This document shows, piece by piece, positions 3,641 through 56,187 of a stretch of DNA of 64,000 bases; positions within the stretch are counted from its first letter, which is position 1; the number at the start of each line of letters is the position of its first letter. The DNA lies in the NCBI GenBank assembly GCA_050013415.1, contig JBEKFH010000001.1:5936-69935 (forward strand), in the 5' to 3' direction. The notes under the pieces were generated by a model. The model had not been told where the DNA came from. It made no database searches and saw only the letters and a list, made by a program, of their open reading frames with translations. A program made the position numbers and the translations under genes. The stretch comes from Streptosporangiaceae bacterium. GTDB lineage: Bacteria; Actinomycetota; Actinomycetes; Streptosporangiales; Streptosporangiaceae.

Positions 3641-3829
3641 CCGGGTTTCCCTTCAACGGGGCTTTCCCAGGATTCTGAACAATGAGGTCTAACCCGGGCA
3701 ACGGGGCGGAGCCATTATCCTGAAGCGTTCACCCGACATTCGCGTGCCGTTCTTTCTGTCCCCTGCCGGGCCCGTCGTGCTGTCACCTGCCGGGCACGCC
3801 GGCGCCGGCCACCCCGCTGCGGCTCGGCC

Positions 3830-8175: not shown

Positions 8176-8212
8176 ACCGCGTGAACCGCGTGAACCTGAA
8201 AGGGAAGAAGCG

Positions 8213-15349: not shown

Positions 15350-15420
15350 CGCGGCCCACTGCGGTACGCCATTCCCGGAAACGGCATTGTTCCCAGAACG
15401 GGCATTCTCCTGCGAGGTAG

Positions 15421-15475
15421 CCTATCCTCGGCGAGACGGCCCGCACTAGCTGGCGCCAGGCTCGCGGAGGATAGG
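15421..15475. promoter_or_regulatory. 15-bp inverted repeat (14/15 match) with a 25-nt spacer, in a divergent intergenic region
   Basis: cctatcctcggcgag at 15421-15435 pairs with ctcgcggaggatagg at 15461-15475. It lies between the aminotransferase (-) and the hydrolase (+). Confidence 0.3.
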
Positions 15476-20965: not shown

Positions 20966-21201
20966 TCCCGGTCCTCTCTGAGGTCAGCGTCTCCATGGGC
21001 AGCCGCCGCAACGGAGGCGTTGAGGCTCCATCGTCTCCGCGGCACGGTGCTCTTCGTATCCGTACAACCCGCAGTCCCGGTACGAGCGCTGGCCCGGGCG
21101 AAGGATCAGATAAACACCGGGCCCCCCGAACGGCCGTCATTTCCGTGGCGCCGCGGACGGTGGCCGGTGATGCGCTTAGACGGTGGCTGCGGCTGTTGGC
21201 G

Positions 21202-34272: not shown

Positions 34273-34314
34273 GCGGGCCGGCCGGCCTAGGCTAGCATCG
34301 GAATATCCCGAATT

Positions 34315-39827: not shown

Positions 39828-41471
39828 GTGACTGCGAGCAACCTTCGGGCGGTCCTGGCCGCGGACCCCGAACTCGGCGCCGGCAACGTGCTGCTCAGGC
39901 TGGCCGAGCACGGCGCCGACATGGACCTGCCGCGGGTGACCTTCGACACCGAGGTCGACGCGATCGCGGCGTGGACGCCGCTGTCGCTGCGCACGCTGAC
40001 GGAGCGGGTGGCCGCGCGGGCCGAATGGTTCCACCGCCGTGGCATCGGGCGGCGGGACCCGGTCGCGGTCTACGTGACGTCAGCGGCCGACGTCACCCTC
40101 AACTTCCTGGCGCTGACCTGGCTCGGGGCGATACCCGCGCTGATGAACGGGAGCATGCCGCCCGAGATCGCGGTCGAGTACATCAGGCGGCTGCGGGCCG
40201 CCGGGGTGCTCATCGACGCCGCCCACGCCGACATGGCCAGCCTCGACCTCGGGGCGCCGGTCATCGGCGACGCGGCCGAGACCGGCACGGGTGACCCGTC
40301 CGGCGGGCCGGCGCATTTCCGGCACGACCCCGGCGATCCGGTGGTCATCACGCACTCGTCGGGCACGACGCGCATGCCCGCCGCCGTGGTGCATTCCCAC
40401 CACGGCCTGTTCGCCGCCGTGCGGGCGGTCCGGCTGACCGAGCCCCGCCAGCACGGCCCGGTGCGGGAGATGTCCGCGTTCCCGCCGGCCCACACCGCCG
40501 GGATCATCATCCTCAACGAGGCCCTGTGCAACGGGTACGAGCTGCTGTGCCTCTCGGAGCAGGGCGGCGCGTTCGCAGGGAGCGGCGAGGTGATCATCGA
40601 CGCCATCGAGCGCTGGCGCCCGACCGCGGTCTACGGCTTCGCCGTCACCTGGTCCGAGCTGGCCCGCTACGACCTGGCAACCCGTGACGTCAGCTCGGTG
40701 CGATTCTGGTCCAACAGCGGCGACTGCGCGCACGAAGCGCACATCCGCCGCCTGATCGCCGTCGGCAGCCACCACGCGTACGGCAAGGACGGCGTCGTCA
40801 GCCTGCCCGGCTCCCGGTTCAACGACACGCTCGGCTCCACCGAGATGGGCTACGGCGGGTTCATGATGAGCCACCGCCCCGGCAGCGAGCGCTACAACCG
40901 CTGCGTGGGCAAGCCCGTCCCGTTCGCCGAGATCCTCCTGGTGAACCCGCAGACCGGCGAGGAGGTCCCGGCCGGCCAGGTGGGGATGGTCGCCATGAAG
41001 TCGCCGACGCTGGCCCTCGGATACTGGAACGACTCGGTCAGCACCTACCGCACCCGGCTGAACGGCTACTACCTGACCGGCGACCTGATGTACCGCGACG
41101 AGGACGGCTACTTCTACCACCTGGACCGGGTCAGCGACGCGCTCGACCTCGGCGACGGGAACTGGCTCTATACCGCGATGTCCGAGGAGCGCATCCTGCG
41201 CCGGTGCCCGGACGTCCGCGACTGCACCGTGCTGGCGGCCCGCGGGGACGACGGCACGCTCGTCATCGACGTCCTGCTGCTGCTGGCGCCGGACGCCGAT
41301 CCCGCGCTCGACCGCGACAGCGAGGTCCGCGCCGCACTCGGCGAGGTGGCGGCGGCCGTGCCGCGGCGGATCGTGACCGTCCCCGACGACGAGATCGTGG
41401 TGGGACCGACCGGCAAGGTCCGCAAGTTCCTCATGCGCGAACGGCTGCTGGCCGCCGCGGGCGCGTCCTGA
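39828..41471 (+). CDS. Adenylate-forming enzyme (acyl/aryl-CoA ligase-like), first gene of the NRPS operon
   Basis: 547 aa with motifs HSSGTTRMPAAVVHSH, GSTEMG, YYLTGDLMYRDEDGYFYHLDRVSD and PTGKVRKF. A strong RBS is present. Confidence 0.85.
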   Translation: MTASNLRAVLAADPELGAGNVLLRLAEHGADMDLPRVTFDTEVDAIAAWTPLSLRTLTERVAARAEWFHRRGIGRRDPVAVYVTSAADVTLNFLALTWLGAIPALMNGSMPPEIAVEYIRRLRAAGVLIDAAHADMASLDLGAPVIGDAAETGTGDPSGGPAHFRHDPGDPVVITHSSGTTRMPAAVVHSHHGLFAAVRAVRLTEPRQHGPVREMSAFPPAHTAGIIILNEALCNGYELLCLSEQGGAFAGSGEVIIDAIERWRPTAVYGFAVTWSELARYDLATRDVSSVRFWSNSGDCAHEAHIRRLIAVGSHHAYGKDGVVSLPGSRFNDTLGSTEMGYGGFMMSHRPGSERYNRCVGKPVPFAEILLVNPQTGEEVPAGQVGMVAMKSPTLALGYWNDSVSTYRTRLNGYYLTGDLMYRDEDGYFYHLDRVSDALDLGDGNWLYTAMSEERILRRCPDVRDCTVLAARGDDGTLVIDVLLLLAPDADPALDRDSEVRAALGEVAAAVPRRIVTVPDDEIVVGPTGKVRKFLMRERLLAAAGAS

Positions 41472-41954: not shown

Positions 41955-44900
41955 ATGGACCGGCCCGCCACTAGCGAAGCGGCCACGAGCAAGGCGGCCA
42001 CTAGCAAAGGACAGTGCGTGATGGTGCTCGATGACTTCCGGTCCCGCGTCGCGCAAGCGCCGGACGCGATCGCCGTGCGGGACGGCGGCACGTGCCTGAC
42101 CTATGGTGAACTGGCCAGGCACGCCTCGGATCTGGCGGCCAGGCTGGCCCGGCGCGGGGCCGGGCCTGATGACGTGGTGGCCGTCTATGCCGACAGGTCC
42201 GCCGAGCTTGTCGTCGCCGAGCTTGCCGTGCTGCTGGCCGGCGCTGCCTACCTGCCGCTCGATCCGGCCCACCCGGCCGCCCGGACAGCCGAGCTGCTCG
42301 CGCTGTCGGGGGCAGTAGCCGTGGTCAGCACCGGGCCGCTGCTGTCCGCTGGCGCGCCGCTCGGCGACAATCCTGAAATCGTCGACCTGGCGCAGGTACC
42401 CGCGGAGCCCGCAGAGCCCCCGGAGCCCGCAGCGCCCGCGGCGTCGCCGGGCCGGCCGGACGACGCCGCGCTGGCCTACGTGATTTTCACCTCGGGCTCG
42501 ACGGGCCGACCCAAGGCGGTCGGGGTCAGCCACGGCAGCCTCGCGAACCTGATGCGCTGGCGCACAGAGGCCTACCGGCTGGGCCCGCGCGACCGGACGA
42601 CGCTGCTGTGCAGCCCCGGGTTCGACGTGGCGGTCTGGGACACCTGGCCCACACTGGCCGCCGGGGGGACACTGGTGGTGCCGCCCGTGCAGGTGCGCAC
42701 GTCGCCCGCTGACCTGGTCGGCTGGCTGGCGGACGAGCAGATCACTGCGACGTTCCTGCCGACGCCGCTGGCCGAGGCGGTGCTCGACGAGCGGTGGCCG
42801 GCCCACACGGTGCTCAGGATGATGCACACCGGCGGCTCGGCGCTGCTGCGCGGAGTGCCGCCCGGGCTTCCGTTCATCCTGGTCAACCTCTACGGGCCGG
42901 CCGAGTGCACGGTGGGCGTGACCACCACCCCGGTGCTGCCGGGCGGCCCCGTGCCGCCGCCGATCGGGGTTCCGATCGACGGCGTTCGGTGCTACGTGCT
43001 CGACGGCCTGGAGCCGGTGCCCGATGGCGAGCCGGGCGAGATGTGCCTGGCCGGCGCATGCGTGGCGCGCGGCTACCTGGGCGACCCGGCGGCCACGGCC
43101 AGGTCCTTCGTGCCGGACATCACGGGCGGCGGGCAGCGGATGTACCGGACCGGCGACAAGGTCCGCCGCCGGGCCGACGGGTCGTTCGAGTACCTCGGCA
43201 GACTCGACGATCAGGTCAAGATCCGCGGGTTCCGGATCGAGCCGGGCGAGGTGGCCGCGGCGCTGCGGCAGCATCCGGCGGTCCGCGAGTGCTTCGTGGC
43301 CGCCGAGCGGTCCGGTCCCGCTGACCCGCGCCTGATTGGCTACGTTGCCGCCGACGCCACCCCCGCCGAGCTGCTTCAGTTCGCCGCGGCGCGGCTGCCC
43401 GGCTACATGGTGCCCGCTGCGATCGTCGTGCTGCCGGCGCTACCGATGACGCCCAACGGCAAGGTGGACCGCGCCGCGCTGCCCGCGCCCGGCCGGGCGG
43501 CGGCCGGCCTGGCCGAGGTGGCCGCGGCCGAGCGCACGCCCACGGAGGGCGTGCTGGCGCGGATCGTGGCCCGGCTGCTCGGGGGCCCCGCGGCCGGCGA
43601 TGCAGCAGCCGGCGATGCAGCGGCCGGCGCAACCGTGGTCGGCGCCGAAGACGACTTCTTTGCCCTCGGCGGCACCTCGCTGCTGGTCGGGCGGCTGGCT
43701 GCCCAGATCGCCGCCGAGCTGCACGTCACGGTCAGCATGGCCGACCTGCTCCGGGCCCGCACGGTGGCCGCGATCGGTGCCATGGTCGACGAGCGGGCCG
43801 GCCAGCACGCCGCGGTGGCCAGCCCGGGGCCAGGCTCCTGGCCGGTCCCGCCAGCCAGGCCGCCGATCCGCCCGGGCCGCCGGGACCGGCCGATACCGCT
43901 GTCGCTGGAACAGCAGCGGGTGTGGTTCTTCGAGCAGCTGTCACCGGGGAACCTGGCCTACAACTTCCAGGCCACGGTGTCCCTGCACGGCGAGGTGCGC
44001 ACCGAGGCGCTGCGCGCGGCGCTCGACGAGATCGTGCGCAGGCACGAGATCCTGCGGACTGCGTTCGTCACGGTCGACGGGGTCGCCATGCAGCGGCCGG
44101 CCGCGTTCGCGAGAGCGCCGCTGCGGGTGCTCGACGTCCCCGCCGAGCACGCCGACGAGGTCATCGCCGCGGAACTGCGCCGGGGGTTCGACCTGACCAG
44201 GCCGCCGCTGGCGCGCTGGATGCTGCTGCGCCATGCAGGCGGCGAGAACACGTTCGTGCACATGGAGCACCATTTCGTGCACGACGGATGGTCGCTGGCC
44301 GTGCTGCTGTCCGAGCTGCGGGCGCTCTACCAGGCCTTCGCGGCCGGCCAGCCATCGCCGCTGCCCGATCTCGCCGTCCAGTACGCGGACTACGCGCTCT
44401 GGCAGCGGGAGTGGATGCGGGGCAAGGTGCTGCGGGCCCACGTGGACCACTGGACCGCCCTGCTGGCCGGCGCACCCGACATCCTGGAGCTGCCGGCCGA
44501 CCGCCCCCGGCCGCCGGTCATGACCCTCCGCGGCGCGGCCCCGCGGATCAAGGTTCCGGCCGAGTTGTCCCGCGCGCTGCGCTCGTTCAGCCGGCAGCAT
44601 CGGGTGTCGCTGTTCTCCACCATGTACGCCGGCTTCGCGGCACTGCTGTACCGCTACACCGGGCAGCAGGATCTGCTCGTGGGCACCGGCGCGGCGAACC
44701 GCAGCCTGCCCGAGCTCGAGCCGCTGGTCGGCATGATCGTCAACACCCTGGTGCTGCGGACTCAGGTGGCGGGCCAGATGTCGTTCACCGACCTGCTCGA
44801 CCAGGTGCAGCGGACCGTCGTCGATGCGCTGGCCTGGTCAGAAACCCCCGTTGACGCCATCATCGACGCGATCGGCCCGGAGCGTGACCCGTCCCGCACC

Positions 44901-47900
44901 CCGCTGTTCCAGATCATGTTCAGCTTCCACGACTCCGCCGTGCCCGACCTGGACTTCGGCGGGCTCACCGGCGCTGTCACCGAGCGCGCGAACGGCTCGG
45001 CCAAGTCCGACCTCAACGTGATCGTGGTGCCGCGGGCCGCGCAGCGGCTTGGCCGCGAGGCCCGGCCCGAGGACGACGACCTGAGCCTAATCTGGGAGCA
45101 TTCGACCGACCTATTCGACGAGGCCACCATGTCGCGGATGGTCACGCACTACCGGAACCTGCTCACCGATGCCGTGGCCAGGCCGACTGCCGGGATTGAC
45201 GAGCTGCAGATGCTCACCGGCGCCGAGTCGCGGCTGATCGGCTCCTGGAGCCGGGGGCCGGGGGCTACCGATGCCGGGTCGGCCACCGATGCCGCCTACC
45301 CCGCGGACGCGACCATCCCCGCGTTGTTTGCTGCCCAGGTCGCCAGGGACCCGGACGCGACCGCACTCGTCACCGGCACCATCACAGGCACCGGCTCCGG
45401 CACAGTGACCTACGCCGAGCTGGACCGGCACAGCAACGCGCTGGCCTGGCTGCTGCGCCGCCGCGGCGTGGGCGCGGACATGCCGGTCGGGGTGGCGATC
45501 GAGCGCGGCGCGGACTGCGTCGCCGCGCTGCTGGCCGTGCTGAAGGCCGGCGGCGCCTACCTGCCGATCGACACCGGCAGCCCGGCGCCCCGGGTCGCCG
45601 CCATGATCGCGACCGCGGGCGCCCGGCTCGTACTGGTCACGGCCGGGACCGCGGCCGCCATGCCCCAGCTGGCGGGCGTGGATCTGATCCGCGTCGACTC
45701 CGCGCCCGTCCTGGCCGCCGATGAGCGGGCGGCACCGCCGGACATCGCGCATCCGCTGAGCCTGGCCTACATCAGCTTCACCTCCGGCTCGACCGGCGTG
45801 CCGAAGGGCGTCGCCGTGCCGCAGCGTGCCGTCATCCGGCTGATCAGCGACCCGACGTTTGCCTCACTCGGCCCCGGCGAGCGGCTGCTGCACCTGTCCC
45901 CGGTCGCGTTCGATGCCTCCACGCTCGAAATCTGGGGCGCGCTGCTGACCGGCGCCGCGATCGTGGTCGCGCCGCCCGGGCCTCTCGGGCTGCCGGATGT
46001 CGCGGCGCTGCTGCGCGACGCCGGCGTGACGGTGGCCTGGCTCACCGCCGGGTTGTTCCACCAGCTGGCCGAGGCGGACATCGACGCGATCGCCGACGTC
46101 CCCGTCGTCCTGGCGGGCGGCGACGTGCTTAATCCCGACACGGTGCGCGCCGTGCTGACAGCGCGCCGCGGCCGTCCGCTGGTCAACGGGTACGGCCCGA
46201 CCGAGAACACCACCTTCACCGCCTGCCATGTGATGACCGACCCGAGCCAGGTGGGGCCGACGGTGCCGATCGGCCGGCCGATCCAGCACACCACCGCGGC
46301 TGTCCTGGACCAGCGCGGGCAGCCCGCGCCGATCGGCGTGACCGGCGAGCTGTATGCCGGCGGGGACGGGCTGGCCCGCGGCTACGCCGGGAACGCCGCG
46401 GCGACGGCGCGGGCGTTCGTGCCCGATCCCTCCGGGCACGGCACGCGGCTGTACCGGACCGGGGACCTGGCTCGCTGGCGCGCGGACGGGGCGCTCGAAT
46501 TCGTCGGCCGCGTGGACGATCAGATCAAGATCCGCGGGTTCCGGGTCGAGCCCGGCGAGGTCGAGGCGGTCCTCCGCGCGCATCCGGGAGTGCGGGAGGC
46601 GATCGTCCTGGCAGCGGGCGAGGGCGCGGAGCGGCACCTCGTCGGCTACGTGACGCCGAAGGACGGCGTGGATCCCGCTGCGCTGCGGCCGTCGCTGCTG
46701 CGTGAGTTCGTCGCGGGCCGGCTGCCGGATTACCTGGTGCCCACGGGGTTCAGGACCATCGCCCGGCTCCCGCTGAACGCCAACGGCAAGGTCGACCGTG
46801 CCGCGCTGCCCGCGCCCGAGCGGGAGGCCCGCAGGCAGGCCACCCCGCCGCGCGGCGCCACCGAGGAGCGGCTCGCCGACATCTGGCGGCTGCTGCTGCC
46901 GGCCGACAGTCCCCGCGGCGGCGATGTCGGCCGGGAGGACAGCTTCTTCGCGCTTGGCGGCAACTCGCTGTCCGCGGCGCGGCTGATGTTCCGGATCCGC
47001 GAGGTGTTCGACGTCGAGCTGCGGATGGCCGTGTTCTACGAGGCACCCACTCTCGCCGCCTGCGCCGCCGCGATCGACGCGGCCCGGCCGGCTGGGCGGG
47101 CCGCGGTTCATCCGCCGCTGCCGGCGGTGGCGCCGCCCGGCATCGGCCGCAGGGACCGGAGCGCCTACCGCGTGGCCGCCCGGCGCCCGGCGCCCGACCA
47201 GCGGCCGGCGCCCGACCAGCGGCCGGCGCCCGACCAGCGCTTCGCGCCGGACCAGCCGTCCGCGCAGGACCAGCCGTCCGCGCCAGCGCAGCATCTCGTG
47301 CCGCTGGCCGGCGACTGGGCACTGTGGCGAACGGTGTGCCTGCGCGGGGCGGGTTTCCCTATCCACTTGCTCGGCGCGCTGGGAGACGCCGGCCTTGCGC
47401 GCGCCGCGGACGCCGTCCTCGCCGCGGACACCGCCACCCCCGCGAACGGGCCCGCTCTCGGGGAGGCCGCTGCTCCCGGGGGAGCCGCCGCGGATCCGGC
47501 GGCGCGGGACCGGGCGGCCGCCGCCTACGCGGCCGAGTTCACCGCCGCGGTCCGGCGCCTGTCCGCCGCCCTGCACGAGGCGGCCGGCCTGCCGGCGCTG
47601 CGGGAGGCGGTCGCCTGGCAGAACCGGCACGCGCTGACGACCGGCATCGACGTGCTGGTCCGCCGCGGGCCTGAGCCAGGCACCCGCAACGCTCAGCGCA
47701 AGCAGCACCAGGCGCTGGTCGCGAGCTATCTGCAGCGGTACTGCGCGAAGAACGACACCATCGGCTTCTTCGGGCCGGTGGGCTGGTCGCAGATCGATGA
47801 CGGCGCCGGCATCCGGATCACCCGCGCCGCACCGGGAGGCTCGCTGGCTGCCCGCGTCACCTACCTGGAGGGCTGGGCCGTGCGCGCGATCATGGCCGAT

Positions 47901-49676
47901 CACGTCAGCTCGCTGCGTCCCTGGCTCGTGCCGCGGCGGATGCCGTTCGTGGATGTCGACGGCACGCTGCTGCGCCTGCCGCTGGCGCCGGTGGTGCCGC
48001 TGACGCCGGCCGAGGCGGCGGTCCTGCGGGCGGTCGACGGCAGCCGTGACGCCCGCGGCGTCGCGGCCGCCGTGCTGGCCGATCCCCGGGCCGGCGTCCG
48101 CGATGCCGCGGAGGTCTTCGCGCTGCTGGAGCGGCTCGCCGACAGCCACCGGCTGGCCTGGCAGGTCGACGTGGCCCCGCAGGACATCCGGCCCGAGCGC
48201 TCCCTGCGGGCGGTGCTGTCGCGGGTCACCGACGACGCCGTCCGCCGGCCGGCCGAAACAGCCCTCGACGAGCTGACCGCCGCCCGGGACGAACTGGCCG
48301 CCGCCGGCGGCGACGCGGAGCGGGTGGCCGGCGCCATGGCCGGCCTGGAGGCGACGTTCACCCGGCTGGCCGGCGTCCCGCCCACCCGGCGGGCGGGCGA
48401 GCTCTACGCCGGCCGGACGCTGGCCTATGAGGAATGCCTGCGCGGCGACACCGTGCGGCTCGGCGCGGACACCCTGGACGGCCTCCGCGAGCCGCTGGCG
48501 CTGGTGCTCGACAGCGCACGGTGGTTCATCACTACCGGCGGGGCGCTGTACGCGCAGTACTTCGAGGAGGCTTACCGGCAGCGAGCGGCGGCGCTCGGCA
48601 CCGATGTCGTGCCGTTCGCCGATATCTGGCTGATCGTTAACGACGCGCTGTTCAGCCAGCCGCCGCCGCTCATCGAGCCTGCGGTGCGCGCGCTGCGGCA
48701 GCGCTGGTCGTCGATCCTGGATCTGCCGCCCGGCGCCCGGCGGGTCCAGCTCCGGGCCGCCGACCTGCGAGAGCGGGTGACATCGCAGTTCCCGGCCCAG
48801 CCGCTGCCCTGGCCGATGGCGGTGCACCACAGCCCCGACCTGATGATCGCGGGCGCGGACGCGGCCGCCGGCGGCCGGCTCACCTGGGTGCTCGGCGAGG
48901 TCCACCCCAGCGTCATCACCTCGCGTTACGCCACGTGGCTGGAGTTCCATGACGCGCAGGATGCCGTGCACGACGCCATCCGCCGTGACCTGCGCGGCGC
49001 CGCCGTGTGGCTCGCCGAGACCGCCGAGAAAGGCGGCACCTGCACGCGGCAGTCGAATGTGCTGCCGTCGCCCGGCGATCTCCGGCTCGTCTTCGCGCAC
49101 GATTCCTGCGGCTATGACCCCGCTGCCACCCTGCCGGTCGGCGAGTGCGACCTGATCGGCTCCCCGGCCGGGCTGCGGGTGCGGCGCCGCGACGGGACCT
49201 TCGAGCGCGGCCTGCTGGAGGTCGTCGGAGACCTGATCAGCACTACCATCACCAACCGCTTCGACCTGGTGCCCCCGGGCGCGCACACGCCGCGGGTGAC
49301 CATCGACGACCTGGTGGTGAGCCGCGAGCGGTGGACGCTCCCCGCCACCGAGCCCGCCTTCGCCGACACCGCCGAGGAGAGCGCCCGCTACCTGCAGGCC
49401 AGGGCGTGGGCGGCGCGGCACGGGCTGCCACGGCACGTGTTCCTGCGGTTCACCGGCGAGCGAAAGCCGATCTACGCGGACCTGACCAGCCTCGCGTCGA
49501 TCGACCTGATCTCCCGGTCGCTGCGCCGTGCCCGCCGGCAGGCCAGCGCCGACGCGACGGTGACCGTCGTGGAGATGCTGCCCGCCCCGGACCAGGCGTG
49601 GCTGACCGACGCCCAGGGCCAGCGCTACACCGCGGAACTCCGCATGGTGGCGGTCGACCAGAGGCAGGAAGGCTGA
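41955..49676 (+). CDS. NRPS 1: A-T-C-A-T followed by a LanB-type (lantibiotic dehydratase N-terminal-like) domain
   Basis: 2573 aa. A1 ~42030-43480 (YVIFTSGSTGRPKAV, NLYGPAE, YRTGD, GRLDDQVKIRGFRIEPGE, PNGKVDRAAL). T1 ~43530-43790 (FFALGGTSLL). C ~43890-45200 (MEHHFVHDGWS). A2 ~45300-46810 (YISFTSGSTGVPKGV, NGYGPTE, YRTGD, NANGKVDRAAL). T2 ~46850-47070 (FFALGGNSLS). A repeat linker follows, then ~794 aa without NRPS motifs. Confidence 0.9.
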   Translation: MDRPATSEAATSKAATSKGQCVMVLDDFRSRVAQAPDAIAVRDGGTCLTYGELARHASDLAARLARRGAGPDDVVAVYADRSAELVVAELAVLLAGAAYLPLDPAHPAARTAELLALSGAVAVVSTGPLLSAGAPLGDNPEIVDLAQVPAEPAEPPEPAAPAASPGRPDDAALAYVIFTSGSTGRPKAVGVSHGSLANLMRWRTEAYRLGPRDRTTLLCSPGFDVAVWDTWPTLAAGGTLVVPPVQVRTSPADLVGWLADEQITATFLPTPLAEAVLDERWPAHTVLRMMHTGGSALLRGVPPGLPFILVNLYGPAECTVGVTTTPVLPGGPVPPPIGVPIDGVRCYVLDGLEPVPDGEPGEMCLAGACVARGYLGDPAATARSFVPDITGGGQRMYRTGDKVRRRADGSFEYLGRLDDQVKIRGFRIEPGEVAAALRQHPAVRECFVAAERSGPADPRLIGYVAADATPAELLQFAAARLPGYMVPAAIVVLPALPMTPNGKVDRAALPAPGRAAAGLAEVAAAERTPTEGVLARIVARLLGGPAAGDAAAGDAAAGATVVGAEDDFFALGGTSLLVGRLAAQIAAELHVTVSMADLLRARTVAAIGAMVDERAGQHAAVASPGPGSWPVPPARPPIRPGRRDRPIPLSLEQQRVWFFEQLSPGNLAYNFQATVSLHGEVRTEALRAALDEIVRRHEILRTAFVTVDGVAMQRPAAFARAPLRVLDVPAEHADEVIAAELRRGFDLTRPPLARWMLLRHAGGENTFVHMEHHFVHDGWSLAVLLSELRALYQAFAAGQPSPLPDLAVQYADYALWQREWMRGKVLRAHVDHWTALLAGAPDILELPADRPRPPVMTLRGAAPRIKVPAELSRALRSFSRQHRVSLFSTMYAGFAALLYRYTGQQDLLVGTGAANRSLPELEPLVGMIVNTLVLRTQVAGQMSFTDLLDQVQRTVVDALAWSETPVDAIIDAIGPERDPSRTPLFQIMFSFHDSAVPDLDFGGLTGAVTERANGSAKSDLNVIVVPRAAQRLGREARPEDDDLSLIWEHSTDLFDEATMSRMVTHYRNLLTDAVARPTAGIDELQMLTGAESRLIGSWSRGPGATDAGSATDAAYPADATIPALFAAQVARDPDATALVTGTITGTGSGTVTYAELDRHSNALAWLLRRRGVGADMPVGVAIERGADCVAALLAVLKAGGAYLPIDTGSPAPRVAAMIATAGARLVLVTAGTAAAMPQLAGVDLIRVDSAPVLAADERAAPPDIAHPLSLAYISFTSGSTGVPKGVAVPQRAVIRLISDPTFASLGPGERLLHLSPVAFDASTLEIWGALLTGAAIVVAPPGPLGLPDVAALLRDAGVTVAWLTAGLFHQLAEADIDAIADVPVVLAGGDVLNPDTVRAVLTARRGRPLVNGYGPTENTTFTACHVMTDPSQVGPTVPIGRPIQHTTAAVLDQRGQPAPIGVTGELYAGGDGLARGYAGNAAATARAFVPDPSGHGTRLYRTGDLARWRADGALEFVGRVDDQIKIRGFRVEPGEVEAVLRAHPGVREAIVLAAGEGAERHLVGYVTPKDGVDPAALRPSLLREFVAGRLPDYLVPTGFRTIARLPLNANGKVDRAALPAPEREARRQATPPRGATEERLADIWRLLLPADSPRGGDVGREDSFFALGGNSLSAARLMFRIREVFDVELRMAVFYEAPTLAACAAAIDAARPAGRAAVHPPLPAVAPPGIGRRDRSAYRVAARRPAPDQRPAPDQRPAPDQRFAPDQPSAQDQPSAPAQHLVPLAGDWALWRTVCLRGAGFPIHLLGALGDAGLARAADAVLAADTATPANGPALGEAAAPGGAAADPAARDRAAAAYAAEFTAAVRRLSAALHEAAGLPALREAVAWQNRHALTTGIDVLVRRGPEPGTRNAQRKQHQALVASYLQRYCAKNDTIGFFGPVGWSQIDDGAGIRITRAAPGGSLAARVTYLEGWAVRAIMADHVSSLRPWLVPRRMPFVDVDGTLLRLPLAPVVPLTPAEAAVLRAVDGSRDARGVAAAVLADPRAGVRDAAEVFALLERLADSHRLAWQVDVAPQDIRPERSLRAVLSRVTDDAVRRPAETALDELTAARDELAAAGGDAERVAGAMAGLEATFTRLAGVPPTRRAGELYAGRTLAYEECLRGDTVRLGADTLDGLREPLALVLDSARWFITTGGALYAQYFEEAYRQRAAALGTDVVPFADIWLIVNDALFSQPPPLIEPAVRALRQRWSSILDLPPGARRVQLRAADLRERVTSQFPAQPLPWPMAVHHSPDLMIAGADAAAGGRLTWVLGEVHPSVITSRYATWLEFHDAQDAVHDAIRRDLRGAAVWLAETAEKGGTCTRQSNVLPSPGDLRLVFAHDSCGYDPAATLPVGECDLIGSPAGLRVRRRDGTFERGLLEVVGDLISTTITNRFDLVPPGAHTPRVTIDDLVVSRERWTLPATEPAFADTAEESARYLQARAWAARHGLPRHVFLRFTGERKPIYADLTSLASIDLISRSLRRARRQASADATVTVVEMLPAPDQAWLTDAQGQRYTAELRMVAVDQRQEG
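47187..47276 (+). repeat. In-frame tandem repeat, 18-bp unit x 5 (ccggcgcccgaccagcgg; PAPDQR), linking T2 to the LanB-like domain
   Basis: Units at 47187, 47205 and 47223 are near-perfect. Units at 47241 and 47259 are diverged. Confidence 0.85.
47292..49673 (+). other. LanB-type domain (Lant_dehydr_N-like, glutamylation/aminoacyl-tRNA-dependent family) fused to the NRPS; no elimination domain
   Basis: aa ~1780-2573 of NRPS 1. Sequence blocks: HLVPLAGDWALWRTVCLRGAGFP, YLQRYCAKNDTIGFFGPVGW, VVSRERWTLP, ARAWAARHGLPRHVFLRFTGERKPIYADLTSLASIDL. The assignment rests on my recollection of the family and no HMM was run. Confidence 0.6.
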
Positions 49677-49678
49677 TC

Positions 49679-52600
49679 GTGGCCGTCTACGAGTTCCCCA
49701 CCTCCTTCGGCCAGCGGCGGATGTGGCTGCTGGCCGAGATGGACCCCGGTGAGCCCACCTACAACATCACCTGGGCGCTGTGGCTGGACGGTCCGCTCGA
49801 CGTCAGCGCGCTGCAGCGGGCCTGGGACGCCGCGCTGGTCAGGCACGAGGCGCTGCGCACGATCTTTAGGAACGAGGCCGGGGTGCCGGTGCAGGTCATC
49901 GAGGACGAGCCGTCCGCGCGGCCGCTGCACGTCAGCTCCGTCGAGCAGCTCGGCGCGGCCGAGCGGGAGCCCGCCGCGCTGGACCTGATCCGCAGCCTGG
50001 CCGGCATACCCTTCGACCTGGCCACCGGACCGCTCGCTCGCGCCGCCCTGGTGCGGCTGTCGCCGGACGCTCACGTGCTCGCGGTGGTGATGCACCACAT
50101 CGTCGCCGACGGCTGGTCGTTCCGGATCCTGTTCGACGAGCTGTCCGCGGATTACGAGGCGATCAGCCGGGGCGGCGACCCGGTTGCCGCGGAACCGCCT
50201 ATTCAGTACGCCGACTACGCCATCTGGCAGATCGAGCACTCCGAGGACGGCGGGTACGCGCCGGCCGGCCGGTTCTGGCGGGCCGAGCTGGCCGATGTCC
50301 CGCCGGCGCTTCCGCTGCCGGCCGATGCGCCCTACCCGGCGCGCCAGACGTTCGCCGCCCGCAGCATCGACTCCGCGATCAGCGCCAGCCTGGCCGGCGC
50401 GCTCAGGGAACTCGCGGCCCGGCACGAGACCACGCCGTTCGCCGTCTTCCTGGCCGCGTACGCCGTCGTGCTGGCCCGGCTGACCGGCAGCGACGACCTG
50501 GTGATCGCGGTGCCGATGGCCGCCCGCACCCGGCCGGAGACCGAGTCGGTCGTCGGGCTGTTCATGAACACCGTCCCGATCCGGATCCGGATCGACGCCG
50601 GCGGGAAGCTCAGCGACCTGGTGCGAGCCGTGCACGCCGCGACCGCGCGGGCGCTGGCGCACCAGGAGCTGCCGTTCGCCCGGGTGGTGGAGCTCGTCAG
50701 GCCCGACCGCGACCCGGCGCGGCTGCCGCTGGCCCAGGTGATGTTCGCGATGGAGGAGTCGTGGGCCGTCCCGGACCGCGGCGGGCTGCGCTGGCGCCCG
50801 GAGCTGGTGGAGAACGGCACCGCCAAGTTCGAGATCGAGCTGACGGTCACCGACGCGCCGGGCGGGCCGCGGATGCGGGTCAACTACAACAGCGACCTCT
50901 TCCGCCCGGCCGCCGGCCAGCTCGTGGCCGACGGCTTCCTGGCGATCCTGCACCGCCTTTGCGACAATCCCGACCAGCTCGTCGCCGACGCGGACATCAT
51001 GCCGCCTGACGCGCTCGCCCTCGTCACGAGCGTGTGGCCGGACGGCGGCCCGGTCGCTGACCCCGGCGCTACCGCCGTGTCCCAGCTATGGGCAGCATGT
51101 GCCGGCGACTCCGTCGTCGCCGCCGGCGCCGGCGGCGAGCTCACCGGCGACGGCGTGCGCGACCTGGCGCGGCGGATCACCGCCGCCGTCCGCGGGCACG
51201 GCGCCGGCATCGGCGACCGGGTCGCGATCCTGCTGCCCCGCGGCACCCGGCTGCTGCCGGCGATCCTGGGCATCTGGTCGGCCGGCGCGTCCTACCTGCC
51301 GCTGGACCCGATCTATCCCGCCCAGCGGCTCGCCACGATGCTCGGCGACGCGGGCGCGGCCGCGATCGTGGTCGACAGCAGCGTGCCCGGCGCGCCGGGC
51401 CTGCCGCCCGGCGCCGCGCCGATCCCGGTGGTGGACCTGGCGACGCTCGCCGCCGCCGGGGATGCCAGGGACACCGGGCCGGTGGCGGGCCTGCCGCCGT
51501 CAGCCGCCGCCGTGACGATCTTCACCTCGGGATCGACCGGCCGGCCGAAGGCGGTCAGCGTGACCCAGGGCGGCATCGCCGCGCTGCTGAACGCGGTGGC
51601 GCCGCTGCTCGCGCTCGGCCCGCGGGACAGATTCGTTGCGACGACGACCTTCGCCTTCGACATCGCGCTGGTCGAGCTGCTCGCGCCGGTGCTGGCCGGC
51701 GGATGCGTCGTGGTCGCCGACGCGGAGCAGGCACGCGACGCGGCCCGGCTGCGGGAACTGCTGACCGGCAGCGGCGCGACAGCTCTGCAGGCGACGCCGG
51801 CCGGCTGGCGGATGCTCGTCGACGCCGACGGGATCCCCGACGGGGTGAAGCTGCGGATGACCGCCGGGGAGCCGCTGCCCCGGGACCTCGCCGACGCGAT
51901 GTGCGCCGGGCCGGACGTGCGCGTGTGGAACCTGTACGGCCCGACCGAGACCACGATCTACTCAGGCGGCGACGCCGTCAGCCCCTCGCCGGCCCCGATC
52001 GAGATCGGGCCGGTCATCGCCGGGACCCAGCTGTACGTGCTCGACGCCGGGCTGCGGCCAGTCCCGCCCGGCGTCATGGGCGAGGTCTACATCGGCGGCG
52101 CCGGGGTCGCCCGCGGCTATCACGGCGCGCCCGGCATGACCGCTGGCCGGTTCATCCCCGACCCGTTCAGCGGGCGGCCCGGCGCTCGCCTGTACCGGAC
52201 CGGCGACGTCGGCCGGTGGCGCGAATCCGGGCGGATCGAGCTGGCCGGCCGCGCGGACCGGCAGATCAAGATCCGCGGCTTCCGGATCGAGAGCGGCGAG
52301 GTCGAGGCAGCCCTGCGGAGCCACGACGACATCGCCCAGGCGGTGGTGTCAGTCCGCGGCGGGGGGCACGACGTCCGGCTCGTCGGCTACCTCGTCACCC
52401 GTTCCGGTGCCACCCGCCCGCCCGCCGGCCTGCGCGAGTTCCTGCGCGAGGTGCTCCCTGACTACATGGTGCCCGCCGCCTTCGTGGTGCTGCCCGCGCT
52501 GCCGCTCACCGGCAGCGGGAAGATCGACTACCGCGCGCTGCCCGAGCCGGACTGGGGCGCGGCCCCCGGCCAGGTCCCGGCCGCGCCGCGGACGCCGGTC

Positions 52601-52867
52601 GAGGCTCGGCTCGCGGCGATCGTTGCCGAGCTGCTCGGCCTGCCGGCGCCGGCCGGGGTGAGCGACAACTTCTTCGCGCTCGGCGGCCACTCGCTGACCG
52701 CGACCCGGCTGATGGCCCGGATCCGGGCCGTCTACGGCGTCGACCTGCCCATCCGCGCGCTCTTCTCCGACCCCACGGTGGCCGGCCTGGCCGCCGCGCT
52801 GGCCGCCGCCGGCGGTGCGCAGGCTGGCGACGGGCTGCGGACGCTCCGGCCCGGCGACGGGAGGTAG
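49679..52867 (+). CDS. NRPS 2: C-A-T
   Basis: 1062 aa from GTG 49679 (GGAAGG upstream, 2 nt after the NRPS 1 stop). Motifs: YEFPTSFGQRRMWLL, MHHIVADGWS, TIFTSGSTGRPKAV, NLYGPTETT, YRTGD, GSGKIDYRAL, FFALGGHSLT. The part of ORF 49145-52867 upstream of 49679 is out-of-context junk overlapping NRPS 1. Confidence 0.9.
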   Translation: MAVYEFPTSFGQRRMWLLAEMDPGEPTYNITWALWLDGPLDVSALQRAWDAALVRHEALRTIFRNEAGVPVQVIEDEPSARPLHVSSVEQLGAAEREPAALDLIRSLAGIPFDLATGPLARAALVRLSPDAHVLAVVMHHIVADGWSFRILFDELSADYEAISRGGDPVAAEPPIQYADYAIWQIEHSEDGGYAPAGRFWRAELADVPPALPLPADAPYPARQTFAARSIDSAISASLAGALRELAARHETTPFAVFLAAYAVVLARLTGSDDLVIAVPMAARTRPETESVVGLFMNTVPIRIRIDAGGKLSDLVRAVHAATARALAHQELPFARVVELVRPDRDPARLPLAQVMFAMEESWAVPDRGGLRWRPELVENGTAKFEIELTVTDAPGGPRMRVNYNSDLFRPAAGQLVADGFLAILHRLCDNPDQLVADADIMPPDALALVTSVWPDGGPVADPGATAVSQLWAACAGDSVVAAGAGGELTGDGVRDLARRITAAVRGHGAGIGDRVAILLPRGTRLLPAILGIWSAGASYLPLDPIYPAQRLATMLGDAGAAAIVVDSSVPGAPGLPPGAAPIPVVDLATLAAAGDARDTGPVAGLPPSAAAVTIFTSGSTGRPKAVSVTQGGIAALLNAVAPLLALGPRDRFVATTTFAFDIALVELLAPVLAGGCVVVADAEQARDAARLRELLTGSGATALQATPAGWRMLVDADGIPDGVKLRMTAGEPLPRDLADAMCAGPDVRVWNLYGPTETTIYSGGDAVSPSPAPIEIGPVIAGTQLYVLDAGLRPVPPGVMGEVYIGGAGVARGYHGAPGMTAGRFIPDPFSGRPGARLYRTGDVGRWRESGRIELAGRADRQIKIRGFRIESGEVEAALRSHDDIAQAVVSVRGGGHDVRLVGYLVTRSGATRPPAGLREFLREVLPDYMVPAAFVVLPALPLTGSGKIDYRALPEPDWGAAPGQVPAAPRTPVEARLAAIVAELLGLPAPAGVSDNFFALGGHSLTATRLMARIRAVYGVDLPIRALFSDPTVAGLAAALAAAGGAQAGDGLRTLRPGDGR

Positions 52868-52875
52868 GGTCTCCC

Positions 52876-55800
52876 ATGCGCTTCCCCGTGTCGTCCTCGC
52901 AGCGGCGGCTGTGGTTCCTCGATCAGCTCGATCCCGGCGAGCCGACGTACAACATGGCGTACGCGATCTGGCTCGACGGCCCGCTCGACGCCGGGGCGCT
53001 GCAGCGGGCGATGGACGCCGTGGTCGCGCGGCAGGCCGTGCTGCGGACGAGCATCGTCGCCTTCGACGGCGTGCCCGAGCAGATCGTCGCCGACACCGCC
53101 ACGGTGCCAATCGAGCGGATCGAGCTGCCGCCCGCGCCCGGCGACGGCGCGCCCGGCGGCGGCGCGCCCGGCGACGGCGCGCTCGATGACGCCGAGTTCG
53201 CCCGGCAGGCCAGGTCGATCGCGGCTGCCCGCGCGCGCCAGCCGTTCGACCTGGCCGCCGGGCCGCTGATCCGGGCCGCGCTGGTCGGCGCCGGGCCCGG
53301 CCGGCACCTGCTCGTGCTGGTCATGCACCACAGCATCAGCGACGGCGCGTCCATGGAGATCCTGATCGGCGAGCTGTCCGCCGCGTACCGGGCCGAGACG
53401 ACCGGCACGCCCGCGTCCCTGCCGCCGCTCTGGATGGAGTACGGCGACTACGCCGTGTGGCAGCAGGACCGGATGCGCGGCGAGGAACTTGACCGGCTGC
53501 TGGCCTACTGGCGCGAGCAACTCCGCGGCGCACCACAGGTCCTCGCCCTGCCGACGGACCGGCCCAGGCCCGCCCGCCAGTCCGTGCGCGGCGCGGCGGC
53601 GACGGTCACCATGGACGCCGCGACGACGCGCCGCCTGGCCGCGGTGGCGCGCGGCGCCGACGTGACCATGTTCATGCTGTTCCTGGCCGGCTTCGCCGCG
53701 GTGCTGTCGCGCTACGCGCGGCAGCACGACATCGTGATCGACACCCAGGTGGCCGGCCGCACCCATGCCGAGCTGGACCCGATCATCGGCATGTTCACGA
53801 ACACGGTCGCGCTGCGGATACCGCTGGCCGGCGATCCGGCGTTCAGCGCGCTGCTCGGCCGGGTCCGGGACACGACCCTGGACGCGCTGCTGTATCAGGA
53901 GCTCCCGTTCGAGAAGCTCGTCGAGGATCTCGCGCCGGACCGCACGCTCTCGCACGCGGCGCTCACCCAGGTCCAGTTCCTCTACGGGTCGCTCACGCCG
54001 CCCGTGCCGGATCTGCCCGGCATCACCGCGCGCGCCGAGGCGGTGCTCACCGGCACCGCGAAACTCGACCTCACCATGTATGTGGACACTCTCGACGGCC
54101 AGTCCACGACACTGACCCTGGAATACAGCACGGATCTGTTCGGCCCGGCGTGGGCCGGGCAGTTCCTGCGCTGCATGGCGAACCTGCTGGAGCACGCGGC
54201 GGACGCCCCCGGGACCCTGGTAGCCGACCTGCCGCTGCTGCCGGCCGCGGAGCGCGACGCGCTGATCATCGGGCGCAACCGCCCGGCGCTGCCGCCCGGC
54301 GACGACATCACGGACGTCCGGCGCCTGCTGCAGGCCTCGGCTTCCCGCGTCACCAGCGGCGGCGAGACGGTGGCAATGAGCCAGGTGTGCGACCGCGCTG
54401 CCCGGATCGCCCGGGCTCTCGCCGACCGCGGCGTGGGCCCGGAAACGCTGGTCGGGCTGTGCGCCGGGCGCGGCACCGGGATGCTGGCGGCGCTGCTCGG
54501 CGTGTGGTGGGCCGGCGGCGCCTACGTGCCGCTGGACCCGGCCTTCCCGCCGGCCCGGCTGGCCGCGATGGCACGCGGCGCCGGCCTGCGGATTATCATC
54601 TCCGACGCCGCCAACCGCGATCTGGCCCGGTCAGTGGCCGATGGCGCGACGGTGCTCTGCCTGGACGACCCGGCCGCGACGGCCGCGTTCCCGCTCGATC
54701 CGGTGCCCCTGCCCGACGCCGCGCTCGCCTACGTCATCTTCACCTCGGGCTCGACCGGGCAGCCCAAGGGCGTCGGCATCTCCCGCCGGGCCGTCGCGAA
54801 CCTGCTCGCGTCGTTCCGGCGCGCCTTCGGGCTCGGCAGCGGCGACCGCTTCGTCGCCGTCACCACGCTGTCGTTCGACATCGCCCTGCTCGAGCTGCTG
54901 CTGCCCGCGGCCTGCGGCGCGGACCTGGTGATCGCGACCGCCGAGGAGGCCCGTGAGCCCGACCGGCTGCGGGCGCTGATCGAGCAGACGGGCGCGACCG
55001 CGATGCAGGCGACGCCGCAGACCTGGCGCATGCTGGAATCGGCCGGCGGCGTGCCGGCCGGCCTTCGGCTGCGGCTCTGCGGCGGCGAGCCCCTCCCGGC
55101 CGACCTGGCGGGCCAGCTGATGGCGCCCGGCGTCACCCTGTGGAACCTCTACGGCCCTACCGAGACCACGGTCTGGTCGGCGGCCGGCGTGGTCACCAGC
55201 GCGGCGAGGGCGGCCGAGATCGGGCCGCCCATCGACCACACCCGGGTGTACGTGCTGGATGAGCGGCTGATGCCGGTGCCGGCCGGGGTCGTGGGCGAGG
55301 TCTGCCTGGCCGGCCGGGGCGTCGCGCGCGGCTATCACGGCCGGCCCCTGCTCACCGCGCGGTCGTTCCGGCCGGATCCGTGGAGCGACGAGCCAGGGGC
55401 CCGCCTGTACCGGACCGGCGACCTCGGCCGGTGGCGCGACGGCGCGGGCCTGGAGCTGATCGGCCGGAACGACCACCAGGTGAAGATCCGCGGCTTCCGG
55501 ATCGAGCTCGGCGAGATCGAGGCCGTGCTGCGCGCGCACCGTGACGTGCGGCAGGCGGCCGTCGTCACCGCCGCCCGGGCCGGCGAGCCCGCGCTGGCCG
55601 GGTACGTCGTGCCGCGCCGGGGCAGCGCCCTGGCCGCGCCCGGCGCCGACGTGCTGGCGGAGCTGCGGCCGCACCTGCGCGCCGCGCTGCCCGACTACAT
55701 GATCCCGGCGCTGATGATCACGCTGCCCGCGCTGCCGCTGACGCCGAACGCGAAGGTGAACCGGGCCGCGCTGCCCGCCCCGCAGTGGGATGCCCCGCCG

Positions 55801-56187
55801 TCCGCGGCCGGCCACGCGGCGCCCCGGAACCCGGTCGAGGCGACCCTCGCCCGGATCTGGGCCGACCTCCTCGCCACCGGGGCGGCGGTCGGCGTGCACG
55901 ACAACCTGTTCGCCCTCGGCGGTCACTCGCTGACTGCGACCAGGTTCGTCGCCCGCGTGTCCGACACGTACGGCGTGAGCCTGCCGGTGCATCACGTCTT
56001 CGCCAGCCCGACGATCGCGGAGCTAGCCGAGGTGGTCGCCGCCGACCCGGATTTCGGGGCCACCGCGGGCCCGGCCCGGCACGCCGAGCTGGACGCGCTC
56101 AGTGACGAGGACCTGGACGAGCTGCTGCGCGCGGCACTCGCCCAGCGCAACCGGCGGCAGGCGATCGCGGGCGACCAGGATTCGTAA
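52876..56187 (+). CDS. NRPS 3: C-A-T with a short C-terminal tail (no TE, R or terminal C domain)
   Basis: 1103 aa. Motifs: SSSQRRLWFL, MHHSISDGAS, YVIFTSGSTGQPKGV, NLYGPTETT, YRTGD, PNAKVNRAAL, LFALGGHSLT. About 49 aa follow the T domain with no GxSxG. Confidence 0.9.
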   Translation: MRFPVSSSQRRLWFLDQLDPGEPTYNMAYAIWLDGPLDAGALQRAMDAVVARQAVLRTSIVAFDGVPEQIVADTATVPIERIELPPAPGDGAPGGGAPGDGALDDAEFARQARSIAAARARQPFDLAAGPLIRAALVGAGPGRHLLVLVMHHSISDGASMEILIGELSAAYRAETTGTPASLPPLWMEYGDYAVWQQDRMRGEELDRLLAYWREQLRGAPQVLALPTDRPRPARQSVRGAAATVTMDAATTRRLAAVARGADVTMFMLFLAGFAAVLSRYARQHDIVIDTQVAGRTHAELDPIIGMFTNTVALRIPLAGDPAFSALLGRVRDTTLDALLYQELPFEKLVEDLAPDRTLSHAALTQVQFLYGSLTPPVPDLPGITARAEAVLTGTAKLDLTMYVDTLDGQSTTLTLEYSTDLFGPAWAGQFLRCMANLLEHAADAPGTLVADLPLLPAAERDALIIGRNRPALPPGDDITDVRRLLQASASRVTSGGETVAMSQVCDRAARIARALADRGVGPETLVGLCAGRGTGMLAALLGVWWAGGAYVPLDPAFPPARLAAMARGAGLRIIISDAANRDLARSVADGATVLCLDDPAATAAFPLDPVPLPDAALAYVIFTSGSTGQPKGVGISRRAVANLLASFRRAFGLGSGDRFVAVTTLSFDIALLELLLPAACGADLVIATAEEAREPDRLRALIEQTGATAMQATPQTWRMLESAGGVPAGLRLRLCGGEPLPADLAGQLMAPGVTLWNLYGPTETTVWSAAGVVTSAARAAEIGPPIDHTRVYVLDERLMPVPAGVVGEVCLAGRGVARGYHGRPLLTARSFRPDPWSDEPGARLYRTGDLGRWRDGAGLELIGRNDHQVKIRGFRIELGEIEAVLRAHRDVRQAAVVTAARAGEPALAGYVVPRRGSALAAPGADVLAELRPHLRAALPDYMIPALMITLPALPLTPNAKVNRAALPAPQWDAPPSAAGHAAPRNPVEATLARIWADLLATGAAVGVHDNLFALGGHSLTATRFVARVSDTYGVSLPVHHVFASPTIAELAEVVAADPDFGATAGPARHAELDALSDEDLDELLRAALAQRNRRQAIAGDQDS

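Follow-up and report, generated by a model that had tools for sequence, protein, structure and literature searches.

A predicted aminoacyl-tRNA-dependent peptide ligase domain fused to a putatively ureido-forming nonribosomal peptide synthetase in a Streptosporangiaceae bacterium

In our study, we examined a 64,000-nucleotide stretch of DNA (the window) from a Streptosporangiaceae bacterium (assembly GCA_050013415.1, contig JBEKFH010000001.1, positions 5,936 to 69,935 of the forward strand), the GC content of which was 65–76% all along. The nonribosomal peptide synthetase (NRPS) gene NRPS1 (41955–49676, plus strand) was found to be a single open reading frame (ORF) of 2573 amino acids. From the ORF list, the translation, and the Pfam domains it had the order A1-T1-Curea-A2-T2-linker-PEARL, in which A, T, and Curea denote adenylation, thiolation (carrier), and ureido-forming condensation (C) domains and PEARL denotes a domain of the peptide aminoacyl-tRNA ligase type. 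By profile search and predicted structure, the C-terminal 794 amino acids were confirmed as a PF04738 domain of the LanB glutamylation fold, fused after T2. This domain is probably a peptide ligase, dependent on ATP and on aminoacyl-tRNA, that would extend the carboxylate exposed by Curea, as suggested by its motifs and by analogy with SnaE of the threopeptin (sna) cluster of Stackebrandtia nassauensis (Yu and van der Donk, ACS Cent Sci 2024; PMC11212132). NRPS1 is a fused variant of the SnaA/SnaE-type system characterised in 2024, in a cluster that is itself uncharacterised.

The C-terminal domain and its fold

The PEARL-type domain (47292–49673, plus strand, amino acids 1780–2573) formed the C-terminus of NRPS1. 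An earlier note on the window had described a LanB-type domain of about 794 amino acids here, following T2 and a repeat linker in the same reading frame; its coordinates and sequence blocks were accurate, and both the Pfam search and the predicted structure bore out the family that it had named. PF04738 (Lant_dehydr_N) was the only Pfam match to this segment, scoring 67 bits where the gathering cutoff is 28 (E 1.3e-18). Neither an NRPS family nor PF14028 matched it in Pfam, and NCBIfam contained no model matching the 794 amino acids. The AlphaFold2 model, for which an alignment of 37 homologues was used, had a mean pLDDT of 89.6 and a pTM of 0.90. In a Foldseek search of the Protein Data Bank (PDB), the model matched TbtB best (6ec7/6ec8; E 4e-24, query-normalised template modelling (TM) score 0.65, 794 vs 796 residues). 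The other matches were MibB (E 1.5e-19, TM 0.61), GodF (E 1.7e-19, TM 0.58), MadB (E ~1e-17, TM 0.64–0.65), and NisB (E ~1e-15, TM 0.57–0.59), with TM scores normalised in the same way. LanB-type glutamylation domains were the sole significant matches in the PDB, and no other fold was found.

By sequence, the relationship to these structures was remote. Neither a single-sequence phmmer search nor profile A1, built from close homologues, found anything relevant among the PDB sequences; profile A2, built from 34 more diverse sequences, reached TbtB at E 7e-15. Profile A2 aligned VVSR(2457)ERW and PRHVF(2496) with R743 and F783 of TbtB (6ec7). The blocks quoted in the earlier note were all present, and two of them, VVSRERW and GLPRHVF...KPIYADL, were those aligned near R743 and F783. 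Profile A3, which covered the C-terminal region only, gave a TbtB alignment that ended at residue 827, short of the E-x-R/E-x-L position, so the comparison of these two motifs was drawn from the published alignment.

The start of the domain at 47292 (HLVPLAGDWALWR) coincided with the N-termini of stand-alone homologues, and NRPS1 ended 10 residues past the last conserved motif. Upstream of it, the T2 carrier domain (46869–47075, plus strand) contained the motif LGGNSLS (46953–46973) with Ser1671 at 46965–46967, followed by a Pro-rich linker of 72 amino acids (47076–47291, plus strand). The linker contained a conserved IGRRDRSAYRV segment and then (PAPDQR)n, the latter coded by an 18-bp tandem repeat in 5.5 copies (47185–47284). 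The IGRRDRSAYRV segment was also found to precede the domain in the homologues P0001, P0003, P0006, and P0032.

A PqqD/RRE-like segment, LTPAEAAVLRAVDGSRDARGVAAAV, was present inside the PEARL-type domain at ~47960–48170 (domain residues ~225–290). Its profile match to PqqD (5sxy) was weak (E 0.025, profile A2 positions 257–328), and the homologue P0120 had a Pfam PF05402 match. A segment resembling a leader-peptide recognition element (RRE) is here located in an enzyme without a leader peptide.

Predicted catalytic motifs and the putative ureido-forming condensation domain

The predicted catalytic motifs of the domain are of the PEARL type and not of the dehydratase type. They were compared in two published diagnostic blocks (Fig. 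S12 of PMC11212132; ~96 residues), which contain five dehydratases and six PEARLs, SnaE among the six. In pairwise scoring of the blocks, the window sequence was nearest to SnaE, with 28/58 and 15/29 identical residues, the highest values in both blocks; TglB, BhaB, and AmmB2 came next, and NisB, MibB, SpaB, EpiB, and TbtB were far. In block 1, the sequence is ...REAVAWQN...VASYLQRYCAKNDTIGFF in the window and ...REAVAWQN...VASYAQRYFTKNDTIGFF in SnaE, whereas the dehydratases read R-x-x-T-R-x-T-P-F-G-L-F (PMC11212132); the domain thus has KNDTIGFF in place of the R-x-T-P-F-G-L-F loop. In block 2, the window reads PAPDQAWLTDAQGQRYTAELRMVAVD (including YTAELRMVAVD) and SnaE PDLHQAWLPGPDGEMYTSELRFVAVN, while TglB reads ...CCEIRTTF and TbtB ...RVIEFLVELGE (PMC11212132).

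Four groups of residues were assigned candidate roles. The helix and loop predicted from sequence to contact the 3'-end of the aminoacyl-tRNA were found in their PEARL version, YLQRYCAKNDTIGFF (47727–47771, plus strand), with Y1925, R1928, and K1932-N-D-T. These residues were invariant in the alignments behind profiles A1 and A2 and were aligned with the SnaE, TglB, and BhaB blocks as against those of the LanBs; the role given to Y1925 and R1928 was taken from Y205 and R208 of BhaBC-Trp. The candidate ATP/Mg2+ residues were D2295 (SPDLM) and E2315-V-H2317 (GEVHP), at 48837–48905 on the plus strand, which were invariant and were placed on beta-strands in the model. They were mapped to D542, E564, and the conserved His of TglB by invariance and by the spacing in TglB and BhaBC-Trp only; this His of the PEARLs replaces Asn283 of glutathione synthetase. 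R2457 and F2496 (49323–49442, plus strand) are a putative adenine-stacking pair, aligned by profile to R743 and F783 of TbtB (6ec7), which stack on the adenine of an aminoacyl-adenosine analogue (PMC11117183). The PEARL E-x-R motif was present as E2561-L-R2563 (49635–49643, plus strand), aligned in the published block and invariant in the family. E2561 was aligned with the equivalent of TbtB E851, and the TbtB adenosine contacts R743, F783, and E851 were all matched in the domain.

In TglB, D542, E801, and R803 are the extra PEARL residues for ATP-dependent phosphorylation of the carboxylate (PMC11117183; PMC11212132), and the Arg of the E-x-R motif is required for this phosphorylation. Dehydratases keep only the Glu, and in split LanBs the Asp and Arg are replaced by Tyr and Leu (PMC11117183). 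PEARLs contain the LanB-type tRNA-binding residues and do not co-occur with PF14028. In our alignments, D2295, E2315-x-H2317, E2561, and R2563 were invariant in 34–37 homologues, at identities down to ~35%. About 58 columns were invariant across homologues at 35–83% identity, all of the proposed catalytic residues included. As substrates of the ribosomally synthesised and post-translationally modified peptide (RiPP) type are absent, the domain could be thought of as a decayed remnant that has lost its catalytic function and acts, for instance, in docking or as a scaffold; given these invariant columns and a compact, confident model, we consider this extremely unlikely.

Neither a PF14028 elimination domain nor a LanC was found in NRPS1 or in about 50 other ORFs of the window that were scanned, and no precursor peptide was evident in the window, where no systematic search for short precursor ORFs was made. 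The earlier note had reported all three absences; the first two held for the ORFs covered, and the third holds within that limit. It had also offered two kinds of chemistry, side-chain glutamylation on the way to a dehydroamino acid or a PEARL-like amino-acid transfer, and the residues indicate the latter. In the former case, the domain would be a true small or split LanB that transfers Glu from Glu-tRNA(Glu) onto the hydroxyl of a Ser/Thr in the carrier-bound peptide, with subsequent elimination. The domain does share its fold with the glutamylation domains of TbtB, NisB, and MibB, and the code of A1 starts with DVW, as Ser codes do, the note having described a Ser-clade-like pocket; the remainder of the A1 code is not that of Ser. 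A2 appears Val-like, the Arg of E-L-R is restricted to PEARLs (TbtB has E-F-L), KNDTIGFF replaces the TPFGLF loop of the dehydratases, and PF14028 is missing, all of which make a LanB of this kind very improbable.

The remaining domains of NRPS1 supply the context for such a ligase. Pfam found two AMP-binding domains, two PP-binding domains, and one condensation domain. A1 (42030–43590, approximate bounds, plus strand; Pfam AMP-binding) had the code DVWFHGLVGK, which was kept in orthologues as DVWFHG[LV]V[GSA]K, and was followed by the T1 carrier motif LGGTSLL with Ser575 (43665–43685, plus strand). A2 (45327–46790, plus strand; Pfam) had the code DALWLGGTFK, which we take to be Val-like. These specificity codes of 10 residues were obtained by alignment to GrsA. 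The condensation domain (43893–45233, plus strand; PF00668, amino acids 647–1093) is of the ureido-forming type by its signature motif. Its active site, the only one of a condensation domain in NRPS1, reads EHHFVHDG (44265–44288, plus strand; 44265–44294 with the following WS), which is the published Curea signature EHHXXHDG. All known ureido-forming condensation domains in MIBiG are reported to contain this signature, and the remaining condensation domains there to lack it; in SnaA, which reads EHHLVHDGWS, E744 and H749 matter for ureido formation in vitro (PMC11212132). The condensation domains of NRPS2 and NRPS3, the next two genes, contained the ordinary motifs MHHIVADG and MHHSISDG. The mechanism in the earlier note had missed the Curea signature in NRPS1's own condensation domain.

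The sna pathway depends on SnaE, a stand-alone PF04738 protein, for the addition of Thr to the ureido carboxylate, and no Thr was added there after deletion of snaE (PMC11212132). The free carboxylate that a PEARL needs would be supplied in NRPS1 by Curea. By analogy with this pathway, the carboxylate of the residue loaded by A1 would lie, after ureido formation, beyond the reach of thiotemplate extension. Since Curea, the A-T-C-A-T layout, and the PEARL-type domain occur together, NRPS1 corresponds to SnaA and SnaE in one polypeptide.

Fused relatives and the proposed mechanism

Species-representative genomes were scanned for relatives of the domain; at least 572 were found, and 79 loci were kept. 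The A-T-Curea-A-T-PEARL arrangement, followed by C-A-T genes, was found in two metagenome-assembled genomes (MAGs; L001 and L005) and in two Micromonospora isolates, sp. NPDC000089 (L009) and M. mangrovi (L012); in L010 and L027 it was frameshifted or partial. Because the same fused frame occurs in the independent genomes L001, L005, L009, and L012, the fusion is real. It is conserved, and its linker is variable. The earlier note had considered a stop or frameshift in the repeat that would separate the domain from the NRPS. An artefact of this kind, or one of the assembly, was ruled out for the linker, since these genomes hold the fusion with different linkers. The closest proteins were 79–83% identical, and the exact gene is therefore not in the collections searched.

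Fusions of a T domain to a LanB-type domain, for which the earlier note had suggested a genome survey, proved to be recurrent. T-fused PEARLs were common in Actinomycetota in our survey, most of them without a recognisable Curea. The commonest fused layout among the relatives was not A-T-Curea-A-T-PEARL but C-A-T-PEARL, which opens an NRPS operon. At L013 (6767–12295) and L039 (6623–12493), C-A-T-PEARL was the first NRPS gene of the operon and was followed by C-A-T modules. Further C-A-T-PEARL loci were L002, L004, L006, L011, L014–L018, L022, L024 (Salinispora pacifica), L026, L028, and L030–L042. An acidic side chain, provided by the adenylation domain upstream of the PEARL, was considered as the acceptor and ruled out, since Val/Leu-like codes were present in essentially all fused relatives.

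Several other arrangements were observed among the relatives. The contig CAVXMG010000017.1 (L010 4760–20261 and L003 1–12352) contained three PEARL-type domains in one NRPS region: one after A-T-Curea-A-T, one ending a C-A-T-PEARL, and one right after the last A-T. A single in-frame stop was present between this last A-T and its PEARL, and the contig has frameshifts. P0001 (1257 amino acids) and about 13 similar clusters encode a C-PEARL didomain with neither A nor T between, in which the ordinary motif FHHALLDG of the condensation domain is followed by the same IGRRDRSAYRV linker and the PEARL. In a Parvularcula (Alphaproteobacteria) MAG (L066 10001–12502), a stand-alone relative was located ~4.7 kb upstream of an EHHxxHDG condensation motif, a layout like that of SnaA/SnaE outside the Actinomycetota. 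About 40 stand-alone relatives with 34–40% identity (L041–L079; Pyrinomonadaceae, Terriglobia, Ktedonobacteraceae, and other MAGs) kept all of the PEARL motifs. Many of these had no condensation-domain motif within 10 kb and may belong to non-NRPS pathways.

The following mechanism is proposed for NRPS1. A1 and A2 would load two amino acids onto T1 and T2, and Curea, to judge from its motif and from SnaA, would join the two amino groups via a carbonyl to give a ureido dipeptide. This dipeptide would be held as a thioester on T2 through its second, Val-like residue, with the alpha-carboxylate of the first residue free, which amounts to a chain reversal. The PEARL domain would bind ATP/Mg2+ (D2295, E2315, H2317, E2561, R2563) and phosphorylate the free carboxylate, as residue conservation and PEARL enzymology suggest. 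An aminoacyl-tRNA, held by Y1925, R1928, and K1932 together with R2457 and F2496, would then attack the acyl phosphate with its amino group, after which the tRNA ester would be hydrolysed. Ligation at the carboxylate of residue 1 means that the chain would gain one residue in the direction opposite to that of the assembly line. The covalent fusion directly after T2 suggests that the PEARL may act in cis on the intermediate while it is tethered to T2. NRPS2 and NRPS3, which are translationally coupled, would extend the thioester end, and a separate thioesterase (TE) would release the product.

If the domain is a PEARL ligase, action on the assembly line and action after release are about equally probable. 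That its action is in cis, on the ureido dipeptide tethered to T2, giving a bidirectional line with thiotemplate extension at one end and a tRNA-dependent ligase at the other, is a proposal that we put forward tentatively. A PEARL whose substrate is the free peptide after its release, or some later intermediate on a carrier, with the fusion serving only for co-expression or co-localisation, is on the whole unlikely. The SnaE study could not tell carrier-bound from free substrates, and most homologues are stand-alone proteins, as such late action would allow; however, the fusions recur specifically after T, in the NRPS protein that opens the line, and in many independent genomes.

The fused relatives also bear on tRNA-dependent off-loading, in which the amine of an aminoacyl-tRNA would attack the T2 thioester directly, so that the ureido dipeptide leaves with an extension at the thioester end; in that case, NRPS2 and NRPS3 would form a line of their own or work on a substrate that has been loaded anew. 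In the fused relatives the domain is always the last in the protein and always follows a T domain, the L003 contig appears to carry one after its last module, and most fused relatives are without Curea, all of which would suit off-loading. Thioester aminolysis has no need of the ATP and phosphorylation residues, yet these are invariant; NRPS2 is translationally coupled and starts with a condensation domain that needs a donor on T2, in a conserved gene order; and a separate TE is present. We therefore regard off-loading as improbable, and the ligase acting on the Curea-exposed carboxylate as the preferred reading.

The following points weigh against this preferred reading. The C-A-T-PEARL relatives contained an ordinary condensation motif (FHHAILDG and similar) and a Val/Leu-like adenylation code, and no EHHxxHDG was found within 10 kb of them. 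Since most T-fused relatives are of this layout without EHHxxHDG, the coupling of Curea with PEARL does not hold generally, and the carboxylate that serves as acceptor could stem from a source other than Curea. The ATP and tRNA dependence of SnaE was itself inferred from homology, and whether its substrate is carrier-bound or free was left open (PMC11212132). The equivalence of D2295 to TglB D542 was set by spacing and invariance only, and for a hand-off in trans, the place between T2 and the downstream condensation domain is an unusual one for a domain of 800 amino acids.

The fusion predicts a ureido peptide that is extended on both sides. Because the acceptor, the carrier, and the ligase are located in one polypeptide, A-T-Curea-A-T-PEARL is convenient for studying the timing of the ligation and its ATP and tRNA dependence. 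Further questions are raised by the T-PEARL fusions without Curea, above all, and by the lines with several PEARLs. If the line is bidirectional, an NRPS with several PEARLs, such as that of CAVXMG010000017.1 (L010 and L003), would add several reverse residues, with each PEARL contributing one as forward elongation keeps pace, and C-A-T-PEARL without Curea would imply a second way of presenting a carboxylate. For annotation, a Lant_dehydr_N match in an NRPS is to be read together with the EHHxxHDG of the condensation domain and the E-x-R and KNDT motifs.

Neighbouring genes and known systems

NRPS2 (49679–52867, plus strand; C-A-T, code DIVQMALIYK) was found to start with a GTG 2 nucleotides past the stop of NRPS1, with GGAAGG upstream, and its orthologue lies directly downstream in L009 and L012. 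NRPS3 (52876–56187, plus strand) is also C-A-T; the code of its adenylation domain (A4), DILQLGLVWK, is presumably Gly-like. Near the NRPS genes a single TE was seen, which was type II-like and fused to a NodB-type polysaccharide deacetylase (34291–35970, plus strand), close to which ABC transporters were located. Since no TE is present in cis, it is the candidate release enzyme.

A free-standing adenylation-type enzyme (39828–41471, plus strand) just upstream of NRPS1 was not an amino-acid adenylation domain. Its best NCBIfam match, over the full length, was the 3-aminoavenalumate diazotase AvaA6 family (NF058622), with a score of 436 bits that does not reach the equivalog cutoff of 975, and its orthologues (82–88% identity) adjoin the type I NRPS in L001, L005, and L010. 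A second biosynthetic gene set was found further upstream (4210–27207), with a 4HPPD/HmaS-type dioxygenase (8147–9304), an FMN-dependent dehydrogenase (19793–20983), and an aminotransferase (14036–15421), a combination typical of hydroxyphenylglycine supply. This set also contained a PhyH dioxygenase, DUF3050, E1 alpha/beta, a ketosynthase, KAS III, an acyl carrier protein, an acyl ligase, a phosphopantetheinyl transferase, a stand-alone condensation domain (16296–18128), and LuxR and SARP regulators. At the window edge, ARAGORN called a 96-nucleotide tRNA-Arg(CCT) (54–149, plus strand), which is doubtful by its length and location, as it lies inside a long minus-strand ORF (2–3652) coding Ig-like domains.

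The work on SnaA and SnaE revealed that a "lantibiotic dehydratase" associated with an NRPS can act as a tRNA-dependent amide ligase, extending the carboxylate that Curea has left free. About 2000 NRPS/PKS (polyketide synthase) clusters encode such enzymes, of which SnaE is one characterised member, and fusions to thiolation or thioesterase domains have already been noted in print (PMC11212132). A 2026 review on aminoacyl-tRNA-dependent enzymes makes no mention of SnaE, NRPS, or fusions (PMC12945691). No characterised fused example was found in the literature searched, in agreement with the earlier note; the novelty that it had implied was overstated.

Like SnaA, NRPS1 is an A-T-C-A-T NRPS with an EHHxxHDGWS condensation domain, and the cluster shares with sna a PF04738 component that lacks an elimination domain, together with an ABC transporter and a TE of its own. 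The KNDTIGFF block is nearly identical to that of SnaE and the YT[AS]ELR[MF]VAV block is close. In contrast, SnaE is a stand-alone protein whereas the PEARL of the window is fused in frame after T2; the line continues with NRPS modules here and with a PKS module in sna, and the adenylation codes of the window are not Arg-like. Neither an MbtH-like nor an SnaO-like gene was seen, although no search aimed at them was made.

The RiPP-type PEARLs (TglB, BhaB1/5/7, BhaBC-Trp/Ala, and AmmB1–4) share with the domain the fold, the Q-R-x3-K-N-[DE]-T and C-terminal E-x-R motifs, the lack of an elimination domain, and, presumably, the chemistry, in which ATP phosphorylates a carboxylate and an aminoacyl-tRNA attacks it. 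They act at the C-terminal end of a ribosomally made scaffold peptide (5–10 kDa). In the window, such a peptide was not evident, and a small, carrier-bound ureido-dipeptidyl thioester is presumed to be the acceptor. TbtB, NisB, MibB, MadB, and GodF were the best structural matches (TM 0.57–0.65), at a sequence identity of 8–18%, and have the tRNA 3'-adenosine contacts in common with the domain. Unlike TbtB and the full-length LanBs, the domain has no elimination domain or partner, contains Arg in place of Leu after the conserved Glu, and has KNDT for TPFGLF. The SylC, anabaenopeptin, pacidamycin, antipain, and muraymycin systems resemble NRPS1 in the EHHxxHDG motif and in having a Curea-A-T module after a loading A-T. 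The terminal carboxylate remains free in these systems, whereas the window, like the sna cluster, has a predicted ligase for its extension.

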